Assembly: GCA_016209205.1 (NCBI GenBank)
Contig: JACQWQ010000042.1
Location: 13,917-77,916 of the forward strand
Length of the DNA stretch: 64,000 nt
Direction: 5' to 3'
Origin: Chloroflexota bacterium
GTDB lineage: Bacteria; Chloroflexota; Anaerolineae; UBA4142; SHND01
The notes beneath the pieces were generated by a model. That model was not told where the DNA came from. It did not search any database and was given only the letters and a program-made list of their open reading frames with translations. How positions within the stretch are numbered: the first letter of the stretch is position 1; each line of letters begins with the position of its first letter. Both the position numbers and the translations under genes were made by a program. Shown here one piece after another: positions 4,192 through 39,152 of this stretch.

Positions 4192-6045
4192 TTGGATATG
4201 CCTGTCTCACTGCGCGCGAAATTGGGACTGTTGTTCCTCGCCTTTGTCGCCCTCGTGCTCGTATCCGTCGGCGCGACCTTGTGGGTAACGGAATTGCAAG
4301 CGACGGATGCGCTCGTCATCAATCTAGCAGGGCGTCAGCGCATGCTCACGCAAAAAATGACGTGGCTCGCGCTCGCGCGCGCGGACGATTCCGAACTTGC
4401 CAATTCCATCCAACTTTTTGAGCGCACCTTGCGCGCCCTGCGCGAGGGCGGCGACACCCTGGATGCCGCCGGACGCGTAATCGTGCTGCCCGCCGCACCC
4501 GACCCAGAGCTCCGTGCACAACTTGACATTGTGGAGAATACGTGGGTCGTGTTTCGCGCTGCGCTCTTGTCCGCCGATCTTGCCGCGATGGAAAAGACCG
4601 CGCCGCAGATTCTCTCGCAACTTGATGTTGTCGTCAGCGCGTTCGAGACGCGCGCCCAAACCAAAGTGACGCGCCTGCAATTTATTCAGCTCTTGTCGTT
4701 AGCAAGCGCGCTGCTCTTGTTGACCATCGGCTATCGTCTGACCAAAACACAAGTGGTCGAACGTCTCGCGCGTTTGGACACGGCGGCGCAAACCATCGCC
4801 GCAGGGCAGCTCGCTTCGCCCGTTCCCGCAACGGGACGTGACGAGATTGGTGTATTGGCACACGCGCTCGACGCCATGCGCGTACAAGTCGCGGCGGCGC
4901 ACGACCAACTCGAAACGCGCGTCATCCAACGCACGCGTGAACTGGACGCCGCATTTGAATTGAGCCAAGCCATTGTCGCCGAGCTCGATTTGGATACGCT
5001 GCTCGATTCTGTTTCTGTGCACGCTCGTTCATTGACACGCGCGCGCGCCGCATCGGTCTGCCTGTTGGAAGGCGCTCCGAGCGTCCTCGTGCAAAAAGCG
5101 TCTAGCGACCATGGCAATCTTTCACGCGAACTACGTCAAACACCGACGCGTCCACTGGCGCGCCAAGTCCTGAATGGTGAAACGATTTTGCAGGATGCCG
5201 GGTGCGCGGCATGTGCGTTTTTGCAAACACATGCGCCGGGCAATTGCGCCGTTGCGCCGCTGCGTTCTGGCGGCAAAACGCTCGGCGCTTTGTGTGTGGT
5301 GCGCGATACCGCAGAACCGTTTTCCGTCGAAGAAGCGCGCGCCTTGACTTTGCTCGCCAACGCCGCGGCCGTTGCTATCGCCAACGCCCGGCTCGTCGAA
5401 TCCGGTACGCTGCAAGCGGAGCAAAATGCGACGCTCGCCGAACGCGAACGGCTTGCCGCCGAACTGCACGACAACCTTGCCCAGACTCTGAGTTTTTTGA
5501 ATTTGAAAACCGAAAATGCGCAAGCTCTACTTGTCGAAGGGCACGCCGCCGAAACTGTGACCGAGCTGGAACGGGTACGCGAGGCAATCACCGCCGCGTT
5601 TACACAAGTCCGCGCTGCGCTCGTCGGTTTGCGCGAACCCTCTGTGAACGGGCAAGATTTGGCGCAGCGCCTGACTGAATGCGTGAACGAGTTTCAACAC
5701 GATGCCCAAGTTCCGGTCGAGTCACATCTGGAGGCAAGCGCGCTTGTTCTCACACCACTCGTGCAAACCCAGGTCGTACACGTTGTGCGCGAAGCGCTCG
5801 CCAATACGCGTCGCCACGCGCATGCGCAGCATGTCCGCGTGTGCGCCGCGCGTCTCAATCAAGTCGCCGCGTTTATTATCGAGGATGACGGTTGCGGATT
5901 TGATCCCAAAACTATTGCGAGCGAACATCACCTCGGTTTGGCGGTGATGCGCATGCGCGTCGAGCGCTGCGGCGGACAGTTGGAGATTACTTCCAAGCCG
6001 GGGGCAGGGACGCGCATCTGTGCGCGTTTCCCTTTGCCATCCTAA
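4192..6045 (+). CDS. NarX-like nitrate/nitrite sensor histidine kinase (PilJ/NarX sensor, HAMP, GAF, HisKA_3, HATPase)
   Basis: TM1 followed by P-box INLAGRQRMLTQKM, TM2, HAMP, ERERLAAELHDNLAQ, IEDDGCGF, GLAVMRMR, PGAGTRI. Confidence 0.88.
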   Translation: MDMPVSLRAKLGLLFLAFVALVLVSVGATLWVTELQATDALVINLAGRQRMLTQKMTWLALARADDSELANSIQLFERTLRALREGGDTLDAAGRVIVLPAAPDPELRAQLDIVENTWVVFRAALLSADLAAMEKTAPQILSQLDVVVSAFETRAQTKVTRLQFIQLLSLASALLLLTIGYRLTKTQVVERLARLDTAAQTIAAGQLASPVPATGRDEIGVLAHALDAMRVQVAAAHDQLETRVIQRTRELDAAFELSQAIVAELDLDTLLDSVSVHARSLTRARAASVCLLEGAPSVLVQKASSDHGNLSRELRQTPTRPLARQVLNGETILQDAGCAACAFLQTHAPGNCAVAPLRSGGKTLGALCVVRDTAEPFSVEEARALTLLANAAAVAIANARLVESGTLQAEQNATLAERERLAAELHDNLAQTLSFLNLKTENAQALLVEGHAAETVTELERVREAITAAFTQVRAALVGLREPSVNGQDLAQRLTECVNEFQHDAQVPVESHLEASALVLTPLVQTQVVHVVREALANTRRHAHAQHVRVCAARLNQVAAFIIEDDGCGFDPKTIASEHHLGLAVMRMRVERCGGQLEITSKPGAGTRICARFPLPS

Positions 6046-6215
6046 CTCGGACAAGCCGAAACCAAACAGGAAACCGCGAATCCCTCAATCCTTCGGGACA
6101 GGTTCTTCGCCAATCTACGCGAATTTTTTCGCATCCCGATTCGCGTAGATTCGTCGCGCGGAGTTCGCGCAAAGATTCGCGGTTAGAAAATCTTTGCTTT
6201 TTGTGCAAAGATTTC
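6041..6215. mobile_element. Palindromic MITE/REP-like element, family A (copy 1)
   Basis: Three blocks align with the reverse complement of 16934-17084 (CCTAACTCGGACAAGC..., AATCTACGCGAATTTTTTCGCATCCCGATTCGCG, GAAAATCTTTGCTTTTTG). Contains the sensor kinase stop codon. Confidence 0.8.
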
Positions 6216-6270
6216 ATTGGATAGGCACTGATGACGTGCGGTTCTGCGTGACCGTGTGTCGGGAGCAGCG

Positions 6271-6945
6271 ATGACACGAGCACGAATTTTGTTATGTGAC
6301 GATCACGAACTTTTCCGCGTGGGCTTGGCGGCTCTGGTCGACGCGCAGCCCGATTTGCAAGTCGTTGGGCAAGCCGCCGACGGACTGGAAGCGCTCACGC
6401 GCGCGCGCGACCTCCGTCCCGATTTGATCATGATGGACATCAAGATGCCGGTCTGCGATGGCTTGGAAGCGACCCGCCTCATTCGCGCGGAAATTCCCGA
6501 CGCGCGCATTTTGATTTTGACGGTGCATGACGAGGACGAAAAACTCTTTGAGGCGATCAAAGCGGGCGCGAGTGGTTACTTGGTCAAGAATGCCAACGCG
6601 GCGGATTTTTTGCAGGCGGTACGGATGGTGCTGGCGGGCGAAGCCGCCGTCCAACCCAAACTTGCGGCGCGCCTGCTCAACGAATTTGCGCGCCTGGCGC
6701 GGGCGCAGTCAACCGATGTGGCTCTGTCCGACGCTGCCGACCTCACGCCCCGCGAACGCGAGGTCTTGAACTTGATTGCGCAAGGCGCGACCGATAAGGA
6801 AATCGCCGCGCAGCTGGCGTTAAGCTTGCACACGGTCAAGAGTCACGTGCGCAGCATTTTGAGTAAACTGCACGCAGTCAATCGCAGACATGCCGCGCGC
6901 TTGGCGGCGCAAGGTAGAGTGCCGCGCGGCAAGGAGCAGCTTTAA
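6271..6945 (+). CDS. NarL/LuxR-family response regulator
   Basis: REC domain (LCDDH, IMMDIKMP, YLVK) plus LuxR HTH (LTPREREVL...TVKSHVRSILSKL). ATG 6271 preferred over GTG 6256. Confidence 0.92.
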   Translation: MTRARILLCDDHELFRVGLAALVDAQPDLQVVGQAADGLEALTRARDLRPDLIMMDIKMPVCDGLEATRLIRAEIPDARILILTVHDEDEKLFEAIKAGASGYLVKNANAADFLQAVRMVLAGEAAVQPKLAARLLNEFARLARAQSTDVALSDAADLTPREREVLNLIAQGATDKEIAAQLALSLHTVKSHVRSILSKLHAVNRRHAARLAAQGRVPRGKEQL

Positions 6946-7085: not shown

Positions 7086-7505
7086 GTGCACGCGCGGCGC
7101 ATTTTTATTGTCGGGGATACTTTATTCGCGGATACGCTCGCGCGAATGCTTGCCGTCAGTCCGGAGGTCTGCGTGGTCGGGTGCGCGCCCACAATCCAAG
7201 CCGCGCTCGAGCCAATCGCCGAAACGTTGCCCGAAGCCATCATCGTGGCAGGCGTCTCGGATTCTGGCGATGAACTACATCGCATGAATCCGAATGAACC
7301 AGCCACTCATCACTGGGGACAACTGCTCGTGCTCTTTCCCAACATTCCACTCATCCGCGCCGATCTCGCCACCGACGCTTTGCTCTTGATTACGTGCAAA
7401 CATATTGACGCGCGTCCCGACTCTTTGCTCGCCGCATTGCATCATCTGCCAACCGACCATCCCGATCAACCGACCAGCCGACTATCCGACCAACCGACCA
7501 ACTGA
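7086..7505 (+). CDS. Degenerate receiver-fold (pseudo-REC) protein
   Basis: CheY-like pattern (IFIVGD...VCVVGCA...PEAIIVAG) without the canonical phospho-Asp. The C-terminus is encoded by a CCGACCAA repeat (7449-7502). Ends 17 nt before nxrA. Confidence 0.5.
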   Translation: MHARRIFIVGDTLFADTLARMLAVSPEVCVVGCAPTIQAALEPIAETLPEAIIVAGVSDSGDELHRMNPNEPATHHWGQLLVLFPNIPLIRADLATDALLLITCKHIDARPDSLLAALHHLPTDHPDQPTSRLSDQPTN

Positions 7506-7522
7506 CGATTAAGGAGATTCTT

Positions 7523-10500
7523 ATGCCGCCCACTATTTCACGCCGCACCTTTCTCAAACTTTCCGGCGCCGCCGCCATCGCGCTCCCCTTTACCGATCTC
7601 CGCATCCAATTGCTCTCGCCAATCTCGGTGGACAATCCGCTAGCGGGCTATCCCGACCGCGAATGGGAAAAAATCTATCGCGACCAATATCGCTACGATT
7701 CCAGCTTTGCTTTTGTCTGCTCGCCGAACGATACCCATGCTTGTCGAATGCGCTCGTTCGTGCGCAACGGCATCGTGCTGCGTTCCGAGCCAAATTACGA
7801 CGTGGCGAAATATGCCGACCTGTATGGCAACACGGCGACGCAACACTGGCATCCGCGCGGCTGCAAAAAGGGGCAGACCTTTCACCGCCGCATGTACGGA
7901 CCGCACCGCCTCAAAGGACCCTTGATGCGCAAGGGTTGGAAGGAATGGGCGGACGCGGGTTTTCCCGAACTCGACGCGGCGAACAAATCGAAATTCAAAT
8001 TCGACGCGCGGGGCACGGATGAACTGCTGCCCGTGTCGTGGGACGTGGCGTACGCTTATATTGCGCGCGGCATGCTCGCGATTGCGAAACGCTATTCGGG
8101 CAAAGCGGGCGCGGAATTTTTGTTCAAGCAAGGGTATCCGCCCGAAATGGTCGAGGCGATGGGCGAAGCAGGGACGCGCACGTTCAAATGTCGCGGCGGC
8201 ATGGGCTTGCTCGGCGTCATCGGCAAGTACGGCATGTATCGTTTTGCCAACACGCTCGCGCTGTTGGACGAACACGTGCGCGGCGTGAAAGAAGAAGAGG
8301 CAAAGGGTGGACGCAACTGGTCCAATTACACCTGGCACGGCGATCAAGCGCCGGGGCATCCGTTCACCACGGCCTTGCAAGCATCCGACGAAGATTTCAA
8401 CGACCTGCGCGCCGACACGTTAAAGCGTCTCGCTGCGCGCGAGGTGTTTGCCGATTACAAGCCCGCGCTCGAGCCAGACAGTTACAGTTTCCAAACGCAA
8501 GGACTCACCCCGGAGCAGTACGCCAAGTTGGGCGATTACGTCGTGCGCGACGCGACGAGCGGCGAATTGAAAGCGCTCACGCGCGACGACGTGGGCGCTG
8601 CGCTCGCGAAAAAAGGAATTGACCCCGAACTGGATTGGTCGGGCCAAGTCAAGTTAGTGGATGGCACAGCGGTTGAGGTCTTGACGCTCTGGACAATGTA
8701 CAAAGAGCATCTCAAGGATTACGACCTCGACAGCGTCGCCGAAATCACGCACGCGCCGAAAAATCTCATCGAGCGTTTGGCGAACGACATTGCAACGATT
8801 CAGCCCGCCGCGATTCACATCGGCGAAGGCATCAATCACTGGTTTCACGCGACGCTCGCCAACCGCGCGCAATTTCTGCCGTTGATGCTCACGGGCAACA
8901 TCGGCAAACCGGGCGCGGGCTGCTACACCTGGGCAGGCAATTACAAAGCCGCGTTGTTTCAAGGTTCCAAAGAAACGGGTCCCGGTTTCAAGGGCTGGGT
9001 CGCCGAGGACCCGTTCCACGTGAACCTGGACGCGAACGCGCCGGGCAAAGATATCATCGCGCACGCGTACACCAAAGACGAAGAACCCGCGTACTGGAAT
9101 CATTCCGAACGCCCGTTGATTGTCGAAACGCCCAAGTACGGGCGCAAAGTGTTCACGGGCAAGACACACATGCCCACGCCGACCAAAGTGCAGTACGTCA
9201 CCAACGTCAACTTGCTGAACAATGCCAAACATCATTACGAGATGATCAAGAACGTCAACCCCAACATCGAGTTGATCATTACCACCGACATCGAAATGAC
9301 CGCGACGGTCGAGTACGCCGATTTCGCGCTCGCGGCAAATTCATGGGCAGAATTCGAGACGCACGAAATCACTGCGTCGTGCTCGAATCCGTTCCTGCAA
9401 ATTTGGAAAGGCGGCATCAAGCCGTTGTACGACACGCGCGACGATGCGCGAATCATGGCAGAGCTCGCGGCAGCAATCGGAAAGGAGATTGGAGACTCGA
9501 GATTTGCCGATTACTGGAAGTTCATCCTTGAAGGTAAACCCGAAGTGTACATTCAACGCTTGCTCGATTCATCGCTCACGACGAACGGTTACACGTTTGA
9601 CGACATCATGGCGGGCAAGTACGGCGAACCCGGCGCGGCGTTGATGCTCTTTCGCACGTACCCGCGCATTCCGTTCTGGGAGCAGGTCCACGATTCCGTT
9701 CCGTTTTACACCGCGACGGGGCGGCTCGACGCGTACTGCGACATTCCCGAAGCCATCGAGTACGGTGAAAACATGATCACGCACCGCGAAGGACCCGAAG
9801 CGACGCCTTACTTGCCGAACGTGATTGTCACCACTTCGCGTTTTGTCAAACCTGACGATTACGGCATTCCACCCGACGCAATGGGATGGGAGGAACGCAC
9901 GGTGCGTAATATCGCGATGAGTTGGGACAAGGCCAAGCGTTCCAAAAATCCGTTGTGGGAAAAGGGCTATGCGTTTTATTGCCTGACGCCCAAGACGCGG
10001 CATCGCGTCCATTCCTCGTGGAGCACGGTGGACTGGACGATCATTCTCGATTCCAATTTCGGCGATCCGTATCGCATGGACAAACGCTTACCCGGACCCG
10101 GCGATCATCAACTGCACATCAATCCACAAGCGGCAAAAGATTTGGGCATCGAGGACGGCGATTACGTCTACGTCGACGCGAATCCCGCCGACCGTCCGTA
10201 CATCGGCTGGAAGCCCGACGATCCGTTTTACAAAGTGTCGCGTTTGATGCTGCGCGCGAAATACAACCCCGCGTATCCGTACCACATCGTCATGCTCAAA
10301 CATGCGCCCTTTATGGCAACCGAAAAATCGGTGCACGCGCACGAAACGCGTCCCGATGGCTTGGCAAAATCGGAAGGCACGGGCTATCAAGCCAACTTGC
10401 GTTACGGCTCGCAGCAGTCGGTCACACGCGATTGGTCTATGCCAATGCACCAGACTGACACGCTGTTCCACAAACAGAAAACGGGGATGCAGTTCATCTT

Positions 10501-10699
10501 TGGCGGCGAAGCAGATAATCACGCGCTCAACACGGTACCAAAAGAAACGCTGGTGAAAATCACGAAAGCGGAAGACGGCGGGATGGACGGCAAGGGGAAA
10601 TGGGACGCAGTGGAAACGGGATTCACACCGGGGCATGAGAGTGAGTTTATGCACAAGTACTTGGGTGGGGGGACGGTGGAGGTGAAACGTGAAACGTGA
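7523..10699 (+). CDS. nxrA: Nitrite oxidoreductase / periplasmic nitrate reductase alpha subunit, anammox-type Mo-bisPGD enzyme; apparent in-frame internal deletion
   Basis: AAGGAG RBS, Tat motif SRRTFLK, FS0 motif CSPNDTHAC...HPRGC, Mo-ligand region WSNYTWHGDQAPGHPF, HIGEGINHWFHA, TPKTRHRVHSSW, NPQAAKDLGIEDGDYVYVDANP. A conserved ~90 aa block appears missing after NDLR (8410/8411). Confidence 0.9.
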   Translation: MPPTISRRTFLKLSGAAAIALPFTDLRIQLLSPISVDNPLAGYPDREWEKIYRDQYRYDSSFAFVCSPNDTHACRMRSFVRNGIVLRSEPNYDVAKYADLYGNTATQHWHPRGCKKGQTFHRRMYGPHRLKGPLMRKGWKEWADAGFPELDAANKSKFKFDARGTDELLPVSWDVAYAYIARGMLAIAKRYSGKAGAEFLFKQGYPPEMVEAMGEAGTRTFKCRGGMGLLGVIGKYGMYRFANTLALLDEHVRGVKEEEAKGGRNWSNYTWHGDQAPGHPFTTALQASDEDFNDLRADTLKRLAAREVFADYKPALEPDSYSFQTQGLTPEQYAKLGDYVVRDATSGELKALTRDDVGAALAKKGIDPELDWSGQVKLVDGTAVEVLTLWTMYKEHLKDYDLDSVAEITHAPKNLIERLANDIATIQPAAIHIGEGINHWFHATLANRAQFLPLMLTGNIGKPGAGCYTWAGNYKAALFQGSKETGPGFKGWVAEDPFHVNLDANAPGKDIIAHAYTKDEEPAYWNHSERPLIVETPKYGRKVFTGKTHMPTPTKVQYVTNVNLLNNAKHHYEMIKNVNPNIELIITTDIEMTATVEYADFALAANSWAEFETHEITASCSNPFLQIWKGGIKPLYDTRDDARIMAELAAAIGKEIGDSRFADYWKFILEGKPEVYIQRLLDSSLTTNGYTFDDIMAGKYGEPGAALMLFRTYPRIPFWEQVHDSVPFYTATGRLDAYCDIPEAIEYGENMITHREGPEATPYLPNVIVTTSRFVKPDDYGIPPDAMGWEERTVRNIAMSWDKAKRSKNPLWEKGYAFYCLTPKTRHRVHSSWSTVDWTIILDSNFGDPYRMDKRLPGPGDHQLHINPQAAKDLGIEDGDYVYVDANPADRPYIGWKPDDPFYKVSRLMLRAKYNPAYPYHIVMLKHAPFMATEKSVHAHETRPDGLAKSEGTGYQANLRYGSQQSVTRDWSMPMHQTDTLFHKQKTGMQFIFGGEADNHALNTVPKETLVKITKAEDGGMDGKGKWDAVETGFTPGHESEFMHKYLGGGTVEVKRET

Positions 10700-10934
10700 G
10701 ACGTGAAACGTGAAACGTGAAACGTGAAACGTGAAACGTGAAACGTGAGGCGTGAAACGTGAAACGTGAGGCGTGAAACGTGAGACGTGAGACGTGAGAC
10801 GTGAAACGTGAAACGTGAGACGTGAAACGTGAGACGTGAGACGTGAAACGTGAAACGTGAGACGTGAGACGTGAGACGTGAGGCGTGAAACGTGAGACGT
10901 GAAACGTGAGACGTGAAACGTGAAACGTGAAACG
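10682..10934. repeat. Heptamer tandem repeat GTGA(A/G)(A/G)C, about 36 units
   Basis: Directly visible mosaic of GTGAAAC, GTGAGAC and GTGAGGC; it encodes the last codons and the stop of nxrA. Confidence 0.97.
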
Positions 10935-10959
10935 TCGGGTGATATGGGAGGAGAATTAG

Positions 10960-12082: not shown

Positions 12083-13322
12083 ATGGCTGATGTTTACAAC
12101 TGGCAGTTGGGTCGCAAGATGACCTATCCCTATCCCGAAGCCCATCCGCAGAAACAATTCGCGGCGGTGTTCAACATCAATCGCTGCATCGGTTGTCAGA
12201 CCTGTACCGGGGCGTGCAAAGCCACGTGGACTTTTTCCAAAGGGCAAGAGTACATGTGGTGGAACAATGTCGAATCGAAACCGTACGGCGGCTATCCGCA
12301 GCAGTGGGACATCAAGATTTTGGAAAAACTCGACGCCGCGCACCAAGCCGCCGGTAAACAGCCCGCGTGGGATTCGACTCAAAGCGATGCCAAAACGCCG
12401 TACGGGACCTACAACGGTCTGACGATCTTTGAAGCGGCGGATCAAATGCAGAACGTCTTGGGCTATTTGCCGCCCGATATGGAATGGCGCGCGCCGAATT
12501 TTTACGAAGACACCGCCACCGCGTACCAAGGCGACGACCTCGGTATCAGCAAACAAGGCGCGTCACTGCCCGAACATCAGACGTGGTTTTTTTACCTTCA
12601 GCGCCTGTGTAATCACTGCACCTACCCCGGCTGTCTCGCGGCGTGTCCGCGTCAAGCCATCTATAAACGTCCTGAAGACGGCATCGTGTTGATTGATCAG
12701 AGTCGCTGTCGCGGTTATCGCAAATGTGTCGAGGCATGTCCGTACAAAAAGAGCATGTTTCGCGGCACGACGCGCACGAGCGAAAAATGCGTCGGCTGTT
12801 ACCCGCGCGTCGAAGGCAATGATCCGTTGAGCGAAGGCGCGCCGATGGAAACGCGCTGCATGGCGGTCTGCCCCGGCAAAATTCGCATGAACGGCTTGGT
12901 GGACATTGCGCAAGACGGCAGCTGGGTCGAGAACCCGCAGCATCCGCTCTATTACCTCGTCAAGGTCGAACAGGTCGCGCTGCCGCTCTATCCGCAGTTC
13001 GGCACGGAGCCGAACATCTATTACATTCCCCCGCGTTGGGCGCCGCGTTCCTATCTGCGCCAAATGTTTGGTCCCGGCGTGGACGCCGCGATTGCCAAAT
13101 ACACCGCGCCCTCGCGCCATTTGCTCGCCGTGCTCCAACTCTTTCGCGCCACACAGCGCATGATCTTTCGCTATGAAATCGAAGCGGGACCGTTGGTACA
13201 CGAGACTGTTGTCAACGGCAAGGTCTGGCAAATGTACAACGATACCGTGATTGGCTTTGACGCCAAGGACCGCGAGGTCGCGCGTTTGAGCGTGGTCGAC
13301 TGCGCGCTTGAATTCGATTTAA
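12083..13322 (+). pseudogene. nxrB: Nitrite oxidoreductase beta (Fe-S) subunit, frameshifted near its 3' end
   Basis: AAGGAG RBS; MADVYNWQLGR, CIGCQTC...C, CNHCTYPGCLAAC, CRGYRKCVEACPY, CVGC, CMAVC motifs. The natural-looking C-terminus ARLNSI* (TAA 13320-13322) is in the +1 frame, so the main frame reads through to 14152. Confidence 0.85.
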
Positions 13323-13436
13323 GTCAAACGTGCCAAACGTGCCAAAGATGCCAAAAATGCCAAACGCGCCAAACGCGCCAAACGTGCCAAACGCGCCAAA
13401 CGTGCCAAAAATGCCAAACCTGCCGAATGCGCCGAA
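13323..13436. repeat. 9-mer tandem repeat (TGCCAAACG-type), about 12 units
   Basis: Directly visible; same family as 11154-11190. Confidence 0.92.
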
Positions 13437-13448
13437 GAGGTCAAGGAG

Positions 13449-14198
13449 GTGCTTGTGTTGACGCTAGAGACCAATGTTCGCCGCGCGCAGGTGTATCGTT
13501 TTCTTGCGGATGCGTTTCTATATCCAACCGAAAATTGGTTGGACGATGCGGATGCGCTGGAACCGATTCTGCGCGCATTGGGAATGGAAACCCCATCGGT
13601 CGTGACCTGCGACCTGCCGCTTGCGACCTGCGACCTGCTACTTGCGGCTTGCAACTTGCGGCTTGCAACTTGCGACCTGCAATCCGAATATCGCCGCGCG
13701 CTCGGCGTCACAGGTTCGGTGTGTTACGAGACCGAATACGGCTTGCCGCACGAATTTCGCCAGAGTCAAGAGCTGGCAGACATTGCCGGTTTCTACAATG
13801 CCTTTGGTTTTCAAATGGGCGGCGCAGTGCGCGAACGCCCCGACCACCTCGCGGCGGAATTGGAATTTATGTGTGTGCTCGCGCTCCAAGAGGCGCGCGC
13901 GCGAGCACACGCCGAACCAGAGCACACCGAAATTTGTTCGGACGCGCAGCGAAAATTTTTGCGCGATCATCTCGGACGCTGGATACATTTGTTCGCTGCG
14001 CGCGTCGCACAAATCGCCTCGCCCGGGATCTATCAACAGCTCGCCGCGTTCACCGCCGCGTTCGTGCGCGCGGACGCGGAACGCTTGGGCGCAGAGCTAA
14101 ACGCTTGCGCCCCGGCGCAAATTTTCCCGACGCCGCCGCCGCAAGACATTGACTGCGGCGGATGCCCGGTCCTGGAATATGCCGACACTACGTATTGA
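13449..14198 (+). CDS. TorD/DmsD/NarJ-family molybdoenzyme maturation chaperone (NxrD-like)
   Basis: AAGGAGG RBS before GTG; YETEYG, LADIAGFYNAFG, ERPDHLAAELEFM, FLRDHLGRW. Contains an in-frame heptamer repeat at 13603-13680. Confidence 0.88.
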   Translation: MLVLTLETNVRRAQVYRFLADAFLYPTENWLDDADALEPILRALGMETPSVVTCDLPLATCDLLLAACNLRLATCDLQSEYRRALGVTGSVCYETEYGLPHEFRQSQELADIAGFYNAFGFQMGGAVRERPDHLAAELEFMCVLALQEARARAHAEPEHTEICSDAQRKFLRDHLGRWIHLFAARVAQIASPGIYQQLAAFTAAFVRADAERLGAELNACAPAQIFPTPPPQDIDCGGCPVLEYADTTY

Positions 14199-15068: not shown

Positions 15069-15226
15069 CAGGTCTCAGGTCGCAGGTCGCAGGTTTCACG
15101 TTGCAGGTCGCAGGTCGCAAGTCGCAAGTCGCAGGTTTCACGTTGCAAGTCTCAAGTCTCACGTCACAGGTCGCAGGTTTCACGTTGCAGGTCGCAGGTC
15201 GCAGGTTTCACGTTTGACGTTTCACG
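15069..15226. repeat. Heptamer repeat mosaic (GTCGCAG, GTTGCAG, GTTTCAC, GTCTCAC)
   Basis: Directly visible; the GTTTCAC/GTCTCAC units are reverse complements of the 10682-10934 units. Confidence 0.92.
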
Positions 15227-15243
15227 CATTCGCGTATCGCGTG

Positions 15244-15338
15244 TCGCACCATCGCACTATCGTACTATTGCACTATCGCACCATCGTACTATCGCACCAT
15301 CGCACTATCGCACCATCGCACTATCGCACTATCGCACT
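15244..15338. repeat. Octamer tandem repeat (ATCGCACT / ATCGCACC)
   Basis: Directly visible, about 11 units. Confidence 0.9.
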
Positions 15339-16412: not shown

Positions 16413-16545
16413 ACATCAATGCACCATGGTGAATGCTCAATGCTGAATGCTCAATGCACAATGCGCAATGCGCAAAGAGGTTGATTTTGTGCGAGGCGAT
16501 TGGGAATGAACACCAATGCACAATGCTGAATGCAGAATGCTTGAT
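16398..16545. repeat. Heptamer repeats (TGCTCAA / TGCACAA / TGCTGAA) plus a ~30-bp direct duplication of the nxrC 3' end
   Basis: GGCGATTGGGAATGAACA(T/C)CAATGCAC occurs at ~16398 and ~16494. Confidence 0.8.
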
Positions 16546-17727
16546 GCACAACGGGGAGCGCAAGCCGAGACAAACGCCGCGTTCGCGCTCCCGCAGCTCG
16601 TCCGCTGGCTCGCCATCGCCGCAGTGATCGAGTGGCTCGTCGGGCGAACGCTCACGCGCGGCGCGTACTTTATCCCCAAAACATCTCCGGTGCTCGGGTT
16701 GTATCAAGGGCTAACGCTCGTTGGGCAATTCGCGTTTACGCTGACCGGCGTCTTGGCTTTGGTTGCCGCAGGATGGCTCGCCTGGCGAATGCGCGCGGAA
16801 TTGCGCGGGATATTTTCGCTGATGTTGCTCGCGCTGCTCGCCGCGAGCGTGGGGTTTGTGTTCGTCGCGCCATCCGCCTGGGCAAGGGTGGGCTATCATC
16901 TGCTAGTGCTGAGCGCGTTAGTACCCATACTCCGAAATCTTTACGCAAAAAGCAAAGATTTTCCACCGCGAATCCCCGCGAATCTGCGCGAATCGGGATG
17001 CGAAAAAATTCGCGTAGATTCGTCGCGCGGAGTTCGCGCAAAGATTCGTGGTTTCTTGATTGGTTTCAGCTTGTCCGAGTTAGGAATGGTTGCTCTGCGC
17101 GCACATCCGATCTTTCGCTTGTCCGTTTGGACATTGCCTGCGGCGGCGATGATCGTTGGAGAATTGTATTTGTTGGATGGCGCGCTCGCCAACGCGCTGC
17201 ACGCGCAAACCGTGACGCCGTTGAGTTCCGCGTTATACAACACGGGAGAGCTGCTCGTCGTCGCCACTCCCTTTGCTATGTGGTGGATGTATGCGCGCCG
17301 CACCTCCGGTTGGATGTACGCCACCGCCGCAATTCCCGCCCTCGCGTTCGCGTTGGCATACTGGCGCAGTCCCGCTTTGACAGGCATCGTAGCAATGTGG
17401 TCGCTTGGGTTGTCGCTGTATCTGCCGTGGGTTTTGTACGCCGTGAGCGCGTGGCTGATGGGTGTTGCGCTTTTGACGTTCTGGCGGCGCGACGTTAACG
17501 CGTCGCCACATCTCGAGTGGGCAGTGCTCTTGATGATCGCGACTGGTTATGCTCCGCCGGTTTCAACGCACGCGCTGCTTGGACTGATCGCGCTGTGGCT
17601 CTTGACGCGCGCGGATAGAGAAAACGGGTTTGGGTTCAATGCTCGCGCCAATCCGGCGGAAACGACGGCGGCGGCGGATAGGGCGCGGGATTCCTTTGTC
17701 GCGCGCGCGACAGCCACGCGGCAGTGA
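16516..17727 (+). CDS. Polytopic membrane protein of unknown function (start uncertain); contains an in-frame element
   Basis: About 10 hydrophobic segments; the hydrophilic insert LYAKSKDFPPRIPANLRESGCEKIRVDSSRGVRAKIRG corresponds to the element at 16934-17084. Confidence 0.7.
   Translation: MHNAECRMLDAQRGAQAETNAAFALPQLVRWLAIAAVIEWLVGRTLTRGAYFIPKTSPVLGLYQGLTLVGQFAFTLTGVLALVAAGWLAWRMRAELRGIFSLMLLALLAASVGFVFVAPSAWARVGYHLLVLSALVPILRNLYAKSKDFPPRIPANLRESGCEKIRVDSSRGVRAKIRGFLIGFSLSELGMVALRAHPIFRLSVWTLPAAAMIVGELYLLDGALANALHAQTVTPLSSALYNTGELLVVATPFAMWWMYARRTSGWMYATAAIPALAFALAYWRSPALTGIVAMWSLGLSLYLPWVLYAVSAWLMGVALLTFWRRDVNASPHLEWAVLLMIATGYAPPVSTHALLGLIALWLLTRADRENGFGFNARANPAETTAAADRARDSFVARATATRQ
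16934..17084. mobile_element. Palindromic MITE/REP-like element, family A (copy 2, inside a CDS)
   Basis: Reverse-complement homolog of 6041-6215. Confidence 0.8.
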
Positions 17728-19488: not shown

Positions 19489-20172
19489 ATGATAAAACTC
19501 GCTGCTTCCGTTCTCTCTGCCAATTTCGCGCGGCTCGAAGCGCACGCCCGCGAGGCGCTCGCCGCGGGCGCGGATTGGCTACACCTGGACGTGATGGATG
19601 GACATTTTGTCCCAAACATCACATTCGGTCCCGCTATCGTTCAGGCATTAAAGCCCCTGCGCGATGAAACCGGCGCATGGCTTGACGTGCATTTGATGAT
19701 CGAACAGCCCGATCTGTATCTGGCGGATTTCGCCAAGGCGGGCGCGGATATACTGACGGTGCAGGTGGAGGCATGTCCGCATTTGCACCGCACAGTTCAG
19801 CACATCAAAGAACTGGGCGTGCGCGCGGGCGTCACCCTCAACCCCGGAACTGCCCTGTCGGCGGTGGAAGAGATTTTACCGTACGTTGACCTCTTGCTCA
19901 TCATGTCGGTCAATCCCGGTTTTGGTGGACAGAGTTACATTCCCACCAGTACGGCAAAAATCGCGCGCGCGCGCAAGCTGTTGGACGCAATCGGCTCGTC
20001 CGCGTGGCTGGAAGTGGACGGCGGCGTGAAACCGGGCAACGCGGCAGAAATCGTCGCGGCGGGGGCAAATGTTTTGGTCGCGGGCACCGCGATTTTTCAC
20101 GGCGATGTCGCGGCGAACGTGCGCGCCTTTCGCCAAGCCAGCATTGGGAATGTGTCATTTCGAACGGAGTGA
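19489..20172 (+). CDS. rpe: Ribulose-phosphate 3-epimerase
   Basis: ASVLSANF, HLDVMDGHFVPNITFG, DVHLMI, MSVNPGFGGQ, EVDGG, VAGTAIF. The last codons and stop lie in the element at 20153-20255. Confidence 0.96.
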   Translation: MIKLAASVLSANFARLEAHAREALAAGADWLHLDVMDGHFVPNITFGPAIVQALKPLRDETGAWLDVHLMIEQPDLYLADFAKAGADILTVQVEACPHLHRTVQHIKELGVRAGVTLNPGTALSAVEEILPYVDLLLIMSVNPGFGGQSYIPTSTAKIARARKLLDAIGSSAWLEVDGGVKPGNAAEIVAAGANVLVAGTAIFHGDVAANVRAFRQASIGNVSFRTE

Positions 20173-20255
20173 GAAATCTCGGTTTCGGACCGAGATTTCT
20201 CACTCCACTACGTTCCGTTCGAAAACCTGTCCGTCCCGAAGGATTGAGGGATGAC
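20153..20255. mobile_element. TGTCATTTCGAACGGAGTGAGAAATCT palindromic element (family C-related)
   Basis: Internal hairpin GAGTGAGAAATCTCGG...CCGAGATTTCTCACTC; shares motifs with 58971-59060. Confidence 0.7.
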
Positions 20256-20367
20256 CATTGTGACGCACTGTGACAATGTGCTGGTGTTTTCGCGCGCGCA
20301 AATGCGCTGCAAATCGCGAGCGACTTGCAGCGCGCGGACAACCCCGTGGCGTGTTATGCCAAGCGCG

Positions 20368-20913
20368 TTAGATCGGGTAAAAGGGCAAAACCAAAAGCAC
20401 GATCAACGAGCCAAAACACAGAAACGGCGCATAAGGCAATTCTGTTTTCGCGGTCCCGCGTTTTGTGAGCAGCATCGTTACGGCGACTGCGCCGCCGCCC
20501 AATACCGCGATTAACAAAACCCACACGATATTGGGAAAACCAAACAAGAGCCCCAGTAATGTGACCAACTTGATGTCACCGCCGCCAAGTTGATGCGGAT
20601 GTACGATGGACGTAAGCGCAAAGGGCACAAACGCAAAAAGCGCCCCGGCTAACCGCATCCATGCCGTTCCGGGCTGGAGCAAAACCAACAACAGCGTGAG
20701 CGCGCCAAGCGGCAGCAAGAGCACATTCGGAATTTTCTGTGTCTGCCAATCCACGTACGAAATCACGAGAAATGCCAACACCAACGCGGCTTGCATGAAA
20801 AACTGCCAGGTCAACTCAAAGCGTCCCAACAGCAAGAGCAGCAGCAAGACGCCAATCAGTCCGAGATTCCGAAACATTTCGGTTTTGTGCGTAGACATGT
20901 TCATAGGATTCAC
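20368..20913 (-). CDS. A24 prepilin / pre-archaellin peptidase (short PibD/ArlK/TadV-like form)
   Basis: Two catalytic Asp motifs (SYVDWQTQKIPN, LGGGDIKL), multiple TMs, and a C-terminal LPYAPFL. Confidence 0.88.
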   Translation of the reverse strand: MNPMNMSTHKTEMFRNLGLIGVLLLLLLLGRFELTWQFFMQAALVLAFLVISYVDWQTQKIPNVLLLPLGALTLLLVLLQPGTAWMRLAGALFAFVPFALTSIVHPHQLGGGDIKLVTLLGLLFGFPNIVWVLLIAVLGGGAVAVTMLLTKRGTAKTELPYAPFLCFGSLIVLLVLPFYPI

Positions 20914-21914
20914 CTCTGTGGGCGCGCGGACGGACGCGTCGTAAAGAAATTCTTGAGCTGTTTCACCATCTCGTGCGCACGTGTGAGCAGCTCGTCAATC
21001 GGAAGGTCAGGCAAATTTTTGACCAGCGCTTCGAGCGCCGACAACGAAACATCCTCTTCTTCAAACAAATTCGCCAAATCTTTTAACAGATTTTTATCTT
21101 CGGCTGCTTTTTCATCTCCCTCTTCTTCTGTGTCAATGACCGGTGCAGCGGGCTGGAGCGGCGGTAATGTCGCGCCCTCACTCGGCTCTCCGGCATCGGG
21201 CGCACCGATGACCGTATCGGGAGAAATTTGGTTCGCATCGTCCACAGCACCCGGCACAACATCCTCACCCAACCCCTCTGGCGTTCCGTCCGCGTCGTCG
21301 CTCCGCGCCCCTGCCGTGCCCAACTCGAGCGTGTCCGGGATGCCCAAGGCAGCCGCTTCGGCGCGACGTGCCTGTTCCAATTGTCGTTCGCGCCACGCGG
21401 GCAAGACGACCAGCCAAACTCCAATGATCAGCGGCAGCAACGATGTCACCACCGCAAGAATCAACAGCGGTTGCGTCAGCCCGACGACGAACGGCGAATC
21501 GGGCGGCGCCAGATCCAAAGCTTGCGCCAACGCGGCGACGTGTGTCCGCGTCTCACTGCTTTTGCTTTCCTGCAGAATGGCAGCCATCAACGTCGTCAAT
21601 TCAGCCGGATCATAACGGCTCAATTGCGCCCGGGCTTGCAGCGCATCGAGCGTGTACCAATACTTGTCGGCAACGGCAATGATGTACTGGCGCGTTGCCG
21701 AGCTATTCTGCGAAACCGGCAGCAGCGCGCCGAGGTCAAACCGAAACAAATACGAACCAATGAGCCCACCGACCATCAAGCCCAACGCCAAAAAAATCAT
21801 GAACTGTGCGAGCGCGTTGAGACGCGACGGCGCAGGACGCCCCGGCGCGCGCGGCGACGGCACAGACGCTTGCCATGCCGTCACAAAACGAGAAAGCGGA
21901 TGAAGCGCGGACAT
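20910..21914 (-). CDS. Hypothetical bitopic membrane protein with acidic low-complexity tail
   Basis: Two TM segments, a helical domain between them and a D/E/P/G-rich C-terminus; starts 2 nt after the arlJ stop. Confidence 0.65.
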   Translation of the reverse strand: MSALHPLSRFVTAWQASVPSPRAPGRPAPSRLNALAQFMIFLALGLMVGGLIGSYLFRFDLGALLPVSQNSSATRQYIIAVADKYWYTLDALQARAQLSRYDPAELTTLMAAILQESKSSETRTHVAALAQALDLAPPDSPFVVGLTQPLLILAVVTSLLPLIIGVWLVVLPAWRERQLEQARRAEAAALGIPDTLELGTAGARSDDADGTPEGLGEDVVPGAVDDANQISPDTVIGAPDAGEPSEGATLPPLQPAAPVIDTEEEGDEKAAEDKNLLKDLANLFEEEDVSLSALEALVKNLPDLPIDELLTRAHEMVKQLKNFFTTRPSARPQR

Positions 21915-21916
21915 TT

Positions 21917-23410
21917 TCACATCACCATGAGGACCAGATTTGGAATGAACATATAACACAGCCCCGCAGCGAACAACAGAATTGCCAAATAATAAGTTAT
22001 CTTGATGAGATGCGCGCCTTCGCTGGCGACGATGGCAAACGCGCTAATGACGGCGAGAATCAAAATCATGCCAATGACCAGCATCCCCAAAAATTCCACT
22101 TGCGGCGCATTGAAATTGAACATATTGCCCAAGCCGAGCGCCGCCGCGGACGCGCCGCCTTCTTCCAATTCTTTAGCCGCTTCCGTCAGCTTGAGCGCGA
22201 ATTGCCCCAAGATGCCGAGCAAGAAAATCATTAATCCCGACATGACCGTGTGCATGACAATGACGAGCCACGAAAACGTTGCCGCCACACCGCGCCGCTG
22301 CTGCCGCAGCATTGCCGTGCGCATCGAATACTCGCTGGTGAGCTTGCCGATGCGCTCCGGGTCGCCGCCCAGATTGATTGCTTCGTAAAAAATACCAATC
22401 ACTTGCTGCACGAGTTTGCTGCCGGTTTCAGCCCCAAAACGTTCCCAACACAGTCGCGGTTTACCGAATGCCTTGAGGCGCAAATCCAATTTGTGAATGT
22501 CGGGCTCGAGCGCGGGAAACGAATCTATCTTGATGCTTGCCAACGCTTCTGTCAACGTCGTGCCGCGCGAAGTTGCCGTACCGCCAAGTGAGCGCAGGAA
22601 CGAACTAATCTCGTCATCTTTGCGCACCGTCTCTTTGTCCGCGCGTCGCGCCGTCCAACCGACGGGGAGAAGCAGCGCAGCGGAAGCCAGCAGCACGTAC
22701 GTTTTGTCCATCTTGAGCGCCAACAACAGCAGCGCGGTCATGATCGCGAGGGGCACGAGGACGAAAAACAATTTACGCGCGCGTCGCTGGGCTGCCGACC
22801 CGAGGAGGAGCGGCACGCTGATTTGATCGGGCGGCGACGCGCGCAAAAGGACCCACGCGACGCCGAAACTCGCCGCCACCGCAATCATCACCATTAACAG
22901 CATGGTCGAAAGCTCGATGTTGTAAATCATCGTCGCGACCATGTTGATGATTACAATGAGCGCGGAGGAAACGGTCACCGCCGCGTACGCGTCGTTCCAT
23001 TTTTTCAGACTCTCCAAACTGCGCGTGTAATCATTCGTGTACGCTTCACCCATCACACTGGCTTCGCGTTGCAAAAAACCGGGCAGCGGTTCGCCGGAGC
23101 GCAGCGCGTCGGACAAACGCAAGAGAAAGGTTTTGACCAAATCGGGCTTGGCGGTTTCGCCGATGAGGCGCACCGCGTCGGGATAGTTGTAGCGCAAATT
23201 TTCGGCGACCTGATGGATATTGTGGAAAAAACGCGCCGGGGGACACGCCAGCTCGCGCGCGAGTTGAAACGTGCGCGCCCGCGAGATTCCGGCAGCCGCC
23301 GTCGCAGACATGTACGTCAACTGCTGAAAGAGGTCATAGCTCGTAATCTCTTCAAAATAATTTCTAATTCGATTGTTGGATGTTGCGGCTACCGTTGCCA
23401 TCGCCATCAC
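21917..23410 (-). CDS. arlJ: Archaellum membrane platform ArlJ (FlaJ)
   Basis: T2SSF-like repeats: DLFQQLTYMSATAAAGISR, LLRLSDALRSGEPL, SFLRSLGG, FYEAINLGGDPERIG; multiple TMs; follows arlI. Confidence 0.88.
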   Translation of the reverse strand: MMAMATVAATSNNRIRNYFEEITSYDLFQQLTYMSATAAAGISRARTFQLARELACPPARFFHNIHQVAENLRYNYPDAVRLIGETAKPDLVKTFLLRLSDALRSGEPLPGFLQREASVMGEAYTNDYTRSLESLKKWNDAYAAVTVSSALIVIINMVATMIYNIELSTMLLMVMIAVAASFGVAWVLLRASPPDQISVPLLLGSAAQRRARKLFFVLVPLAIMTALLLLALKMDKTYVLLASAALLLPVGWTARRADKETVRKDDEISSFLRSLGGTATSRGTTLTEALASIKIDSFPALEPDIHKLDLRLKAFGKPRLCWERFGAETGSKLVQQVIGIFYEAINLGGDPERIGKLTSEYSMRTAMLRQQRRGVAATFSWLVIVMHTVMSGLMIFLLGILGQFALKLTEAAKELEEGGASAAALGLGNMFNFNAPQVEFLGMLVIGMILILAVISAFAIVASEGAHLIKITYYLAILLFAAGLCYMFIPNLVLMVM

Positions 23411-23493
23411 CTCACTGCTATATTTTCAGTGTAACACTCGACCCACGCGCGCCTCAATACCCCGAATTGGCTAGCCGAAGCGTACTATACCGC

Positions 23494-25179
23494 TCACAAT
23501 AACTTTTGTCGCTGGGCTTGGGCAATCACGGCAAAGATTTCGTAAAAGTTCTTGAGTTTCTTTTCGAGGTGCAGGCGTTGGAAAATTTTCGCGCGGCGCT
23601 TGAGCTCGGTGTAAATCATTTTGCGCTTGAACGGCGGGATGCCGCGTTTGAGCGCGATCTTTTCTTCCAACACGAAACTGTTCATAAAGCCCGGGAACTC
23701 GAACGTGTCCGTGGCGGGATTCCAGCGAAACGCTTCGACGACCGAAAAACTTTCGGTCGTCGGATCGTAACCGACAATTTCGTTGATGCTCAAAACCCGG
23801 CGCGTCATGCCCTTGCCGGGGACTTTGACGGCGGCTTGAATCAAAACCACGTCAAGATTGTCTACGTACGAGCGCGGAATGTTGATCGGATCGCCCGTGA
23901 GACGTTGAATCAATTTTTCCACCGACGCGGCGTGAAAGGTGGATATGACGCCGTGCCCCGTCTGCATCGCTTGAAAGGCAATCGCGCCTTCGACCCCGCG
24001 AATTTCGCCGACGATAATGCGGTCGGGGCGCTGCCGCAGCGCCGCGCGCAAGAGATCGAACATCCCTACTTCACTGCCCGTATTTTCTTTGCCCGAACCG
24101 CGCGTGGTCTCGCGAATCCAATTTTTGTGCGGCACTTGAAGTTCGGGAGTATCCTCGATGCTCACGATTTTCCGGTCGGGTGGAATGAACGTCGTAATCG
24201 CATTCATCGTGGTCGTTTTACCGGAAGCCGTCGCGCCGGCGACAAACATGTTCAAACCTTCTTCGAGCGCAAAGGAGAGATATGCCGCCATCATATAGTC
24301 CATTGTGCCGAAATCCACGAGCTCGAAAACGCTCGTCGGAATGCCCATGAATTTGCGGATGGTAAAATTACTGCCGCGTTTGCTGACGTCGGTGCCATAG
24401 ACGATGTTGATGCGTGAGCCATCGGGCAGCGTCGCGTCCACGATGGGGTTGCGCACCGTGACCGGATGCTTGATCATTTCGCCGAGCCATATTACAAACT
24501 CGTCTAAATCGTCTTCGGCGGCGAAATTGGTGGTAGATTCGACGCTCTTGAAAATTTTATGCTCGACAAAGACCGGGCCCACGCCGCTGCAACTAATATC
24601 TTCAATCGCTTCGTCATACAGCAGCGGCGATAAAATCCCGTAACCGATTTTGTCGCGGTTGAGCAGGTACTTGAGCGCCTCCAATTCGCGCGCGGAAACC
24701 ACGATTTTGCCGCTCTCGCCCGTCAGCGTCGTGATCGCATCAATCGCTTTGTTCAACGCGCTGCGTTTTTCGTCGTTGTTGGCCGCCGCGCCAATTTGAT
24801 CCACATAATCCAATAAACGCGCTTCGACTTCCAGTAGAACGTGATCCAGTTGTACATTCAAATGCGGTTCGATGGGCACGTACGTATCGCGTTCACTTTT
24901 TTCATTCGGATAAATGTGAACGTACAAACCATTTTTAATCGGATAAATCAAATTGCGGCGTTCGAGATACTGCAAATCGCGTGACAGCTTCGGATAGTAT
25001 TCCGGCACGCCGATCATATTCATCGGAACGAGGTGCAAGTATTCTGACAAGAACGCGCTAGAGTCTGCGGCTTGTTGCAATGGTTTCGGCAAAACGCCGC
25101 GCAAGCTGCACCGCGCGCCATTGTCGCACGCGGGCTTGGGTTTTTCGGGCAGCTCGAACGGTAAATGTGTGGTGGTCAT
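23494..25179 (-). CDS. arlI: Archaellum motor/assembly ATPase ArlI (FlaI)
   Basis: NLIYPI...YVHIY, RDKIGYGILSPLLYD..IEDISCSG, Walker A GATASGKTT, ALRQRPDRIIVGEIRG, FQAMQTGH, STFHA. Confidence 0.93.
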   Translation of the reverse strand: MTTTHLPFELPEKPKPACDNGARCSLRGVLPKPLQQAADSSAFLSEYLHLVPMNMIGVPEYYPKLSRDLQYLERRNLIYPIKNGLYVHIYPNEKSERDTYVPIEPHLNVQLDHVLLEVEARLLDYVDQIGAAANNDEKRSALNKAIDAITTLTGESGKIVVSARELEALKYLLNRDKIGYGILSPLLYDEAIEDISCSGVGPVFVEHKIFKSVESTTNFAAEDDLDEFVIWLGEMIKHPVTVRNPIVDATLPDGSRINIVYGTDVSKRGSNFTIRKFMGIPTSVFELVDFGTMDYMMAAYLSFALEEGLNMFVAGATASGKTTTMNAITTFIPPDRKIVSIEDTPELQVPHKNWIRETTRGSGKENTGSEVGMFDLLRAALRQRPDRIIVGEIRGVEGAIAFQAMQTGHGVISTFHAASVEKLIQRLTGDPINIPRSYVDNLDVVLIQAAVKVPGKGMTRRVLSINEIVGYDPTTESFSVVEAFRWNPATDTFEFPGFMNSFVLEEKIALKRGIPPFKRKMIYTELKRRAKIFQRLHLEKKLKNFYEIFAVIAQAQRQKLL

Positions 25180-25263
25180 AGGTCGAGTAAGTGTAAATAG
25201 GCAGTTGAACTGCCGTGGGTCAACGCGCAGTCCAACTGCGCGTTGACAAGCCGAACCAGCGGT

Positions 25264-26334
25264 CTAACCCTTGACTTTGTTGATTGGAATCACGCGAATG
25301 CCCCACCCCGGCTCTACTTCAAAACTCACGATGTTGCCGGTCGTTTGTTCTGCGCCGCGCACTTTGGTCACTTCAAGCGTTTTCACCAATTTGTTGCCGA
25401 CTTCTTCGGTGCGCAGCTGCAAATGCGCGTCACACAAGGAACGGATGCGCGTGAGCAATTCGCGCGTCAGCCCGTGCGAATGCACGATTGCAATCACCGT
25501 CGTGCCATCGCCGCACAAACGTTTGCCCTCTTCAAAAAAACCGAGCACTTCTTTGTCCGACGATTGCGGAATGGAAGAGGTCAGCGAATCAATGAAAATC
25601 ATATTGCGCCCTTTTTCGCGTTTCATCGCGTTGATGAGCACCGTCGGCGCATGTTTGCCTAGCCGCGATGTTTCAATCGGATAAATGTGCAAATGGTCGA
25701 GCAGCAAATAATCCAAAATGTCGAGATTGAGAGAGCGCATTTGTTTGACCAAACTCTTGACCGAGTTTTCACTTGTAAAGAGGGAGAGTTTGTACCCATC
25801 CATCAAACAGCCGTGCATCATTTGCTGCGCGAGCACTGATTTTCCCGCGCCCGAATCGCCTTCGATAAGCGTGAGCGACCCCATGGGCACACCGCCGCCC
25901 ATCTTGTTGTCGAGATCGGGATTGCCGGTCGAAATCAGTTTCGCATTGTCGTCTTCCGGGCTGATGAGCAGCGGCTTGACTTTGCTGATGAGTTCGACGG
26001 GGTTGAACGGCTTGATGAGATAATCATCCACCGCCGATTTTGGTCCAATCTCGAGATTTTCAAGTTGATTCTCGTCGGCAATCATCAAAATGCGCTCATG
26101 GCTCGTCGCGGGATCTTTGTGCAGTGTTTTGGCAATGTCGTTACCCTTGGCGGTGGGCAGTTTGAAATCGAGAATCACCAGATTGGGTTGTTCACGACGC
26201 GCCAGCATCAGACCTTCTTTGCCATCAGCCGCCGCGAGAACGGTATAGCCGTCCTCTTCCAACGGATATTTGAGGAGCTGTACGAGTTGTGCGTCGCCTT
26301 CGATCAACAAAATCTTTTTAGTTTTGCCAGCCAT
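25264..26334 (-). CDS. arlH: Receiver domain fused to ArlH (FlaH, KaiC-like ATPase)
   Basis: N-terminal ~125 aa REC (LLIEGD, LVILDFKLP, DDYLIKPF), then ISTGNPDLDNKMGGGVP, GDSGAGKS, IFIDSLT, RIRSLCDAHLQL, LEVTKVRGA, FEVEPGWGI. Confidence 0.9.
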   Translation of the reverse strand: MAGKTKKILLIEGDAQLVQLLKYPLEEDGYTVLAAADGKEGLMLARREQPNLVILDFKLPTAKGNDIAKTLHKDPATSHERILMIADENQLENLEIGPKSAVDDYLIKPFNPVELISKVKPLLISPEDDNAKLISTGNPDLDNKMGGGVPMGSLTLIEGDSGAGKSVLAQQMMHGCLMDGYKLSLFTSENSVKSLVKQMRSLNLDILDYLLLDHLHIYPIETSRLGKHAPTVLINAMKREKGRNMIFIDSLTSSIPQSSDKEVLGFFEEGKRLCGDGTTVIAIVHSHGLTRELLTRIRSLCDAHLQLRTEEVGNKLVKTLEVTKVRGAEQTTGNIVSFEVEPGWGIRVIPINKVKG

Positions 26335-26361
26335 ACGCGTTCTATCCTCTAGCGCAAATTC

Positions 26362-29165: not shown

Positions 29166-29186
29166 GACCGCGCCCTTTCGACAACT

Positions 29187-39006: not shown

Positions 39007-39152
39007 TCGAAATCTTTGTTGGCGCAAGATGGTTCGCCTATGCTCACCACATGGTTGGACTCTTGCGCCGCCAGCCGTGCGAGTTCAACTCGCAACCCTC
39101 GCCGCGCCACGAGTCCAACTCATGGCGCAACGAGAGCTCTCCTACCAACTAA

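Follow-up and report, generated by a model that had tools for sequence, protein, structure and literature searches.

In a 64-kb window of contig JACQWQ010000042.1, from a Chloroflexota bacterium, the gene for the catalytic subunit of a predicted nitrite oxidoreductase (NXR), nxrA, is found as an allele that, compared with an intact ancestral form, has lost a conserved core block through a clean in-frame deletion. The nxrA-like open reading frame (ORF) lies at 7523..10699 on the + strand and encodes 1058 aa, compared with ~1149 aa for the form in intact relatives, and homology, Pfam matches and alignment place it among the periplasmic NXR/nitrate reductase (NAR) type of catalytic subunits with a molybdenum bis(pterin guanine dinucleotide) (Mo-bisPGD) cofactor. 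That the deletion is clean and in frame is shown by the presence of the intact allele in same-study contigs and by the universality of the block in relatives. The nxrB gene, for the iron-sulfur subunit, is frameshifted by a second deletion, and as written both the catalytic and the iron-sulfur subunits are broken, while contigs from runs of the same population encode intact genes. The allele is a defective form of a known kind of enzyme, not a new kind.

A preliminary description of this DNA had proposed, by comparison with anammox NxrA sequences, a clean in-frame loss of about 90 residues at the 8410/8411 junction, and alignment bears this out, with exactly 91 residues (273 bp) absent. The window protein joins DFNDLR straight to ADTLKR; the junction reads ...SDEDFNDLR followed directly by ADTLKRLAAREVF... 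(in wider context, ...ASDEDFNDLRADTLKRLAAREVF...), and the codon for R296 ends at 8410. The NxrA of Kuenenia (7b04_B, 1148 aa) matches the window protein over both flanks (E=0, 1617.7 bits) in two pieces, with query residues 5-301 aligned to residues 3-302 and query residues 295-1054 to residues 387-1146, confirming a gap in which Kuenenia residues 298-388 are missing. When the window protein is aligned with its ten closest full-length relatives (alignment A1), 91 columns (296-386) are empty in it alone, and nearly all of these are at least 90% conserved among the relatives. In A1 the missing block reads (R)NSLLHIQCGKNLVENKM...TPEYSPPATK.DYWIPIRP.TDTAL...FTDFPLLV(R), and the motifs that the preliminary description gave for it (GKN.IENKMPE.H, TPEY, ADYW.P.R and TD) all fall inside.

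Word searches pointed to runs of one groundwater-metagenome study. Of the words of window positions 20000-29999, 99% are present in X1 and 98% in X2, and these two runs therefore contain essentially this population, at ~12x. Intact nxrA is present in the Logan contigs of four runs of this study (X1-X4), with flanks ~99.5% identical to those of the window. Record 3 of X1 (650 bp) matches 8267-8410, continues with 268 extra bases and then matches 8406-8643, and record 10 of X2 (1200 bp) has the same insert-bearing layout; an X4 contig continues past 8410 with AATTCGATGCTCCACATTCAATGCGGCAAA (NSMLHIQCGK), and an X3 contig reaches 8406 from ...TCAAACGGTTCACCGATTTCCCGCTGCTCG (...KRFTDFPLLV). The contig pieces overlap at TGCGC (8406..8410, + strand), the sole remaining copy of a 5-bp direct repeat; in the intact allele TGCGC stands at both ends of the 273-bp block and closes ...GACCTGCGC (DLR) and ...CTCGTGCGC (LVR). 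The junction at 8410/8411 can accordingly be placed anywhere within 8405-8411. A short microhomology had been guessed at from the LR and xR flanks, and the 5 bp found here are expected at a random junction with P ~0.01 (about 1% of random junctions in a homologous gene have at least 5 bp).

The short form is not seen among relatives. Among 5.8 billion proteins searched, 2194 homologues reach E<=1e-50, and the only short protein among the best 120 of these is the window's own (P0001, a single member from one contig of 115,827 bp), which is also the sole one with 100% coverage in one piece. The remaining 119, with lengths of 1108-1151 aa, are 79-89% identical to the window protein and contain the block; all are 1137-1151 aa save P0100 (1108 aa), whose shortness is confined to the N-terminal end of the alignment. 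The best local alignment covers only 72-73% of each of the 119, and their matches therefore divide at this same point. In 185,579 species-representative genomes, 591 relatives were found, the best 80 of which all match over 3.3-3.5 kb, and a 106-aa probe across the block matches 82 of the 82 fetched loci (mean identity 80%), with a one-residue gap in 4 of them and no gap in the other 78. A degenerate DNA pattern for the joined form (DFNDLR+AD.L[KQ]R) has 0 matches in the 185,579 species genomes and 241 M Joint Genome Institute (JGI) metagenome records, two collections from which the window's own contig is absent, and a 180-aa protein query spanning the junction returned no joined-form fragment and only unrelated fragments at 41-82% identity. 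On these sequence searches the short form is unique to this assembly, and the notion that many homologues share it is therefore refuted, as none of the 119 listed matches and none of the 82 loci does so.

In Mo/W-bisPGD enzymes, one pterin guanine dinucleotide is bound by a Rossmann-like alpha-beta-alpha domain that starts right after the metal ligand. The lost block corresponds to positions ~102-182 of Pfam PF00384, to which the block alone matches with 31.9 bits, above the cut-off; the PF00384 match of the window protein starts at position 182 and scores 55.5 bits, compared with 98.2 bits for an intact relative (P0002), and the window NxrA does not have a complete molybdopterin-oxidoreductase domain with both Rossmann-like PGD-binding domains, a defining feature of an intact NxrA. 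The block aligns to the same region of NarG, PcrA, EbdA, FdhF, FdnG, DMSOR and Arr, is recognisable also in Psr, and is equivalent to residues ~246-342 of E. coli NarG and ~197-288 of PcrA (E 1e-17 to 1e-20, 141-aa probe). The type II DMSO-reductase-family proteins E. coli NarG (1Q16), PcrA (4YDD) and EbdA (2IVF) are intact, and the block comes right after Asp222 in NarG; judged from these alignments, it is a universal core element of the fold. We know of no natural member of the type II family without this element, and none lacking the block was found in the searches here.

Known functional features upstream of the junction are retained. These include a putative twin-arginine translocation (Tat) signal region, SRRTFLKL... 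(7535..7582, + strand), for which the PF10518 score of 19.7 bits is below the 22.7 cut-off and the RR motif is visible, and the motif C66-S-P-N69-D70-T-H-A-C74 for the iron-sulfur cluster FS0 and substrate (7718..7744, + strand). C66, N69, D70, C74 and C114 are invariant columns in A1 and all are kept in the window protein, as is the Mo-coordinating Asp, D274 (codon 8342..8344, + strand), which aligns with Kuenenia Asp275 and NarG Asp222 and lies 22 codons upstream of the junction. In the Kuenenia NXR structure, Asp275 is the Mo ligand, Asn70 (N69 here) positions the substrate, and Asp71 (D70 here) is an FS0 ligand (PMC8387239). Because the Mo-ligand Asp, the substrate Asn and the FS0 ligands lie upstream and are retained, the lost part is predicted to be cofactor-binding fold rather than catalytic residues. 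The preliminary description had assigned both cofactor-binding and active-site elements to the block, and the first of these holds, whereas the active-site residues are outside it. Its view that the protein is probably inactive agrees with the fall in family score from 98 to 55 bits, and we consider that the window NxrA is very probably inactive. An AlphaFold2 model of the 1058-aa protein (11-sequence alignment, relatives at least 79% identical) has a mean predicted local distance difference test score of 27.6 and is unusable, and no support is drawn from it.

The second lesion is in nxrB, which encodes the 4Fe-4S subunit (12083..14152, + strand) and, by comparison with X1 and X2 contigs and with relatives, has a 20-bp deletion after 13299, where the window is without ACCCGTTCACGAACGACCGG. 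With the 20 bp restored, NxrB is 419 aa long and ends ...ARLSVVEPVHERPAARLNSI before its stop; the conserved tail, ...EPVHERPAARLNSI and stop, is present in 65 of the 65 relatives reaching the end and in the nearest relative locus (L003), and is destroyed by the frameshift in the window. The shifted frame misses the ancestral stop at 13320-13322, passes through a 9-mer repeat and the chaperone gene, and runs to 14152 to give 689 aa, with ~270 junk residues replacing the tail and overlapping the chaperone gene. TARLNSI and its stop are still legible out of frame, and the frameshift is therefore recent. No microhomology was found at the nxrB join (the insert follows 13299, an A). A dropped strain bubble was considered for this deletion and ruled out, the right flank being haplotype-specific right at the join.

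Along all 64 kb of the window, comparison with X1 and X2 contigs reveals full-depth indels in single-copy DNA at two places only, the nxrA and nxrB deletions. Other differences lie within or beside repeats: 1-bp ones in tandem repeats of very high depth, and a swap of a repeat region at 39152-39277. The chance that two random indels would both hit nxrAB (~7% of the window) is ~0.005.

Substitutions were also found that are private to the window. Codon 284 (8372..8374, + strand) is GCC (Ala) in the window and GGC (Gly) in the run contigs, and the responsible 8373C gives G284A, altering a Gly that is invariant in 82 of 82 relatives. Together with 8579A this single-nucleotide polymorphism (SNP) flanks the deletion junction, and the intact run contigs are without both; with private SNPs on the two sides of the junction, a mis-joining of the same reads is not enough to explain the allele. 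At codon 353, which contains 8579, the X1, X2 and X3 contigs encode Ala and the window and 77 of 81 relatives encode Thr. Relative to X1 and X2, window-private SNPs are located at 1951, 8373, 8579, 8824, 12343, 12351, 21319, 38731, 54163-54205 and 56811, and there is a further private 9-SNP cluster at 47655-47774, in which the alleles of 47655-47741 are found in X3. The window alternates X1-like, X2-like and X3-like tracts, and therefore did not come from any single run, being either the mosaic product of a co-assembly or the sequence of an unsampled sister strain. Dense SNP clusters at 8644-8695, 4326-4419, 47655-47774 and 54244-54361 divide the run haplotypes, with identical flanks and a density of, for example, 16 differences in 52 bp. 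These clusters and the tract switching suggest either recombination tracts or strain-mosaic assembly.

The reading we favour is that the window carries a real, rare loss-of-function haplotype of the nxr operon, and we hold this at about an even chance. The operon would have been broken recently, with 273 bp of nxrA lost between the TGCGC copies, presumably by slipped-strand or microhomology-mediated deletion as the pattern suggests. The block would represent the first beta-alpha-beta-beta-alpha half of the Rossmann-like domain after the Mo-ligand Asp, which holds one of the two pterin guanine dinucleotides, and the NxrA product would fail to fold around or bind Mo-bisPGD and be inactive despite its catalytic residues, while the NxrB product would have its C-terminal tail replaced by junk. 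Such a haplotype would belong to a strain with little or no presence in the public runs, living alongside sister strains with an intact operon, and would reflect selection on NXR that is relaxed or negative in this groundwater population of Anaerolineae, not a new enzyme form. In support of a real haplotype, the three private changes (G284A, the 91-aa deletion and the NxrB frameshift) are all damaging and are confined to one operon. Further support comes from the low probability of the 5-bp microhomology at a random junction, from the independence of the nxrB lesion and from the small chance that two random indels would both strike nxrAB. De Bruijn assemblers need junction-containing reads, and 5 bp cannot create a false join.

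A further proposition is that the lesions are real, are linked on one haplotype and mark a loss of NXR that is selected and not merely tolerated, in a sub-lineage sharing its aquifer with sister strains whose NXR is intact. We consider this rather unlikely, although if true it would be a strain-level, Black-Queen-like polymorphism in a key nitrogen-cycle enzyme of subsurface Chloroflexota within ~0.1% divergence.

The strongest alternative is that the deletion alleles are an artefact of assembly, bin refinement or curation, or derive from a chimeric library molecule picked up by the assembler, so that the deletions exist in no cell and the real genome has an intact 1149-aa nxrA and a 419-aa nxrB. 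This is quite possible, at somewhat under an even chance, and a number of observations argue for it and weigh against a real haplotype. Only intact sequence is present in five runs at the covered sites (X1-X4 for nxrA; X1, X2 and X21 for nxrB), every run's only contig across the nxrA site carrying the 273 bp. Full depth is reached by intact sequence at both sites in X2 and at nxrB in X1: the insert-bearing nxrA contig is at 11.6x in X2, where the genome is at ~12x (6.1x in X1), and the 20 bp of nxrB are at 100% of depth in X1 and X2. The runs are seen only as Logan contigs, and these drop rare variants. No indexed run contains the three words sampled from 8381-8440, or the words over 8373C, the junction and 8579A, and the word share of 8343-8609 is at best 0.57 and identical in the four best runs, reflecting non-diagnostic words only. 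The intact haplotype has an odd T353A of its own, and signs of 'decay' are thus not limited to the allele in the window. Moreover, nxrAB is the window's most cross-population-conserved stretch, and nxrA is common to many co-occurring populations (>300 contigs at >=90%), giving therefore a tangled assembly graph; the contig is a strain mosaic fitting no single run, as expected of an assembly or co-assembly of mixed strains, the setting in which local misassemblies occur most often. For a biological origin, a pair of damaging indels in a single, otherwise highly conserved operon at only ~0.1% divergence is a lot, and odd nxrA-nxrB fusion contigs do occur in public data (P0131, described below).

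Other properties of the window are harder to reconcile with an artefact. We know of no k-mer assembler step that joins over 5 bp, as at nxrA, or over 0 bp, as at nxrB, without reads containing the join; the window contains no Ns and no other indels in ~60 kb; private SNPs stand on either side of the nxrA junction; and the right flank of the nxrB join has haplotype-specific letters, hence not a dropped strain bubble. The artefact suggested in the preliminary description is a serious rival, in that no public run supports the junction, but it is not the reading we favour.

A different account is that a second, intact nxrAB lies elsewhere in the same genome and that the window copy is a decaying paralogue whose lesion is harmless. 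Multiple nxrAB copies are common in Nitrospira, and the window-like contigs of X1 across 7844-8725 are at 5-8x compared with 12x for the genome, or about half of its depth. However, the X2 intact contig is at single-copy depth (11.6 compared with 12) with no doubled depth, and there is one nxrA in the 64-kb window, within which no second copy was found; we regard this account as very unlikely. The 'unusual minimal variant' of the preliminary description, a functional shortened NxrA under selection with a re-modelled cofactor pocket or a non-catalytic role, is scarcely credible and was rejected because no relative has the short form (none of the 119 other listed protein matches or the 82 loci, with 0 matches to the joined-form pattern and no junction-spanning fragments), because few parts of the protein, or of the superfamily as a whole, are as well conserved as the block, and because the partner nxrB is frameshifted on the same contig, even though the frame is kept, as are the FS0 motif, the Mo-ligand Asp and the putative Tat signal.

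The locus belongs to the ordinary periplasmic-type nxr/nar clusters known from Chloroflexota, with the order NarX/NarL-like regulators, nxrA, small ORF, nxrB, NarJ-like chaperone and EB_dh haem subunit; the chaperone and haem subunit genes are present, and nxrB, being frameshifted, leaves the set of partner genes not fully intact. Directly upstream of nxrA, at 4192..6945 (+ strand), are genes for a NarX-like sensor kinase (PilJ/HAMP/GAF/HisKA_3) and a NarL-like (LuxR-type) response regulator, a pair that is syntenic in L003 and is probably a nitrate/nitrite-responsive NarXL-like system. Downstream are the NarJ/NxrD-like chaperone gene (PF02613; 13449..14198, + strand), with an in-frame heptamer repeat at 13604-13680, and the gene for an NxrC-like haem subunit (EB_dh domain, PF09459; 14940..16412, + strand).

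The window protein resembles Kuenenia stuttgartiensis NxrA (Kustd1700; PDB 7B04 chain B; Chicano et al. 2021, PMC8387239) in its full-length homology and its putatively Tat-type N-terminus, and shares with it the C-x-x-N-D-x-x-x-C FS0/substrate motif, the Asp cluster ligand, the Mo-ligand Asp (275 there, 274 here) and the neighbouring nxrB, NarJ-like chaperone and EB_dh-type haem subunit genes. It differs in being without residues 298-388 and in its host, a Chloroflexota (Anaerolineae-like) and not an anammox planctomycete. The NxrA of the 'Anaerolineae bacterium SJ719' metagenome-assembled genome (MAG) (P0002 / L003, JADZCJ010000124.1) is 88-89% identical, and its operon has the same order as the window (sensor kinase, response regulator, small ORF, nxrA, small ORF, nxrB, chaperone); besides that of SJ719 there are ~590 further NxrA-type genes in species-representative genomes. 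NxrA genes from aquifer-sediment Chloroflexi were reported earlier (PMC3971608). In relatives, NxrB ends ...EP.HERP..RLNSI and stop at residue 419, whereas the window alone has the 91-aa gap, G284A and the nxrB frameshift. A public 214-aa protein, P0131 (from a 1114-bp ncbi/Logan contig), consists of an NxrA fragment, ...LAKDIATIKPV, fused to the C-terminal part of NxrB, ...EEPFHVRPDKHANSI, and is another deletion or misjoin inside an nxrAB locus in public assemblies.

Tandem arrays with 7- to 9-bp units fill intergenic spacers at 10682-10935, 1645-1808, 7449-7506, 13325-13424, 13604-13680, 15069-15338, 16416-16551 and 60273-60345. The units include GTGAAAC (x36), CAAACGTGC (x11), GACCTGC, CAGGTCG and AGTGATC, among others, and the array at 13604-13680 is in frame within the NarJ-like chaperone gene, in place of a variable linker. 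The arrays resemble the heptamer short tandemly repeated repetitive (STRR) sequences of heterocystous cyanobacteria. Their Logan word depth is hundreds to >10,000x, and they are therefore common to many loci or genomes in the sample. At 39152-39277 the X1 contig has 173 other letters for 124 bp of the window, beside short pieces at >350x, and this is a repeat-associated structural difference between strains.

Any annotation based on length or on hidden Markov models would record 'nxrAB present' for this MAG and thereby list it among putative nitrite oxidisers or nitrate reducers; it should not be counted as NXR-competent from gene presence. If the alleles are an artefact, they provide a clean example of local misassembly in a gene common to many co-occurring strains. 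If the haplotype is real, it would offer a natural Delta(298-388, Kuenenia numbering) allele with its catalytic residues in place, for studies of Mo-bisPGD folding and cofactor insertion, and would document the ongoing loss of NXR in a groundwater Anaerolineae population.

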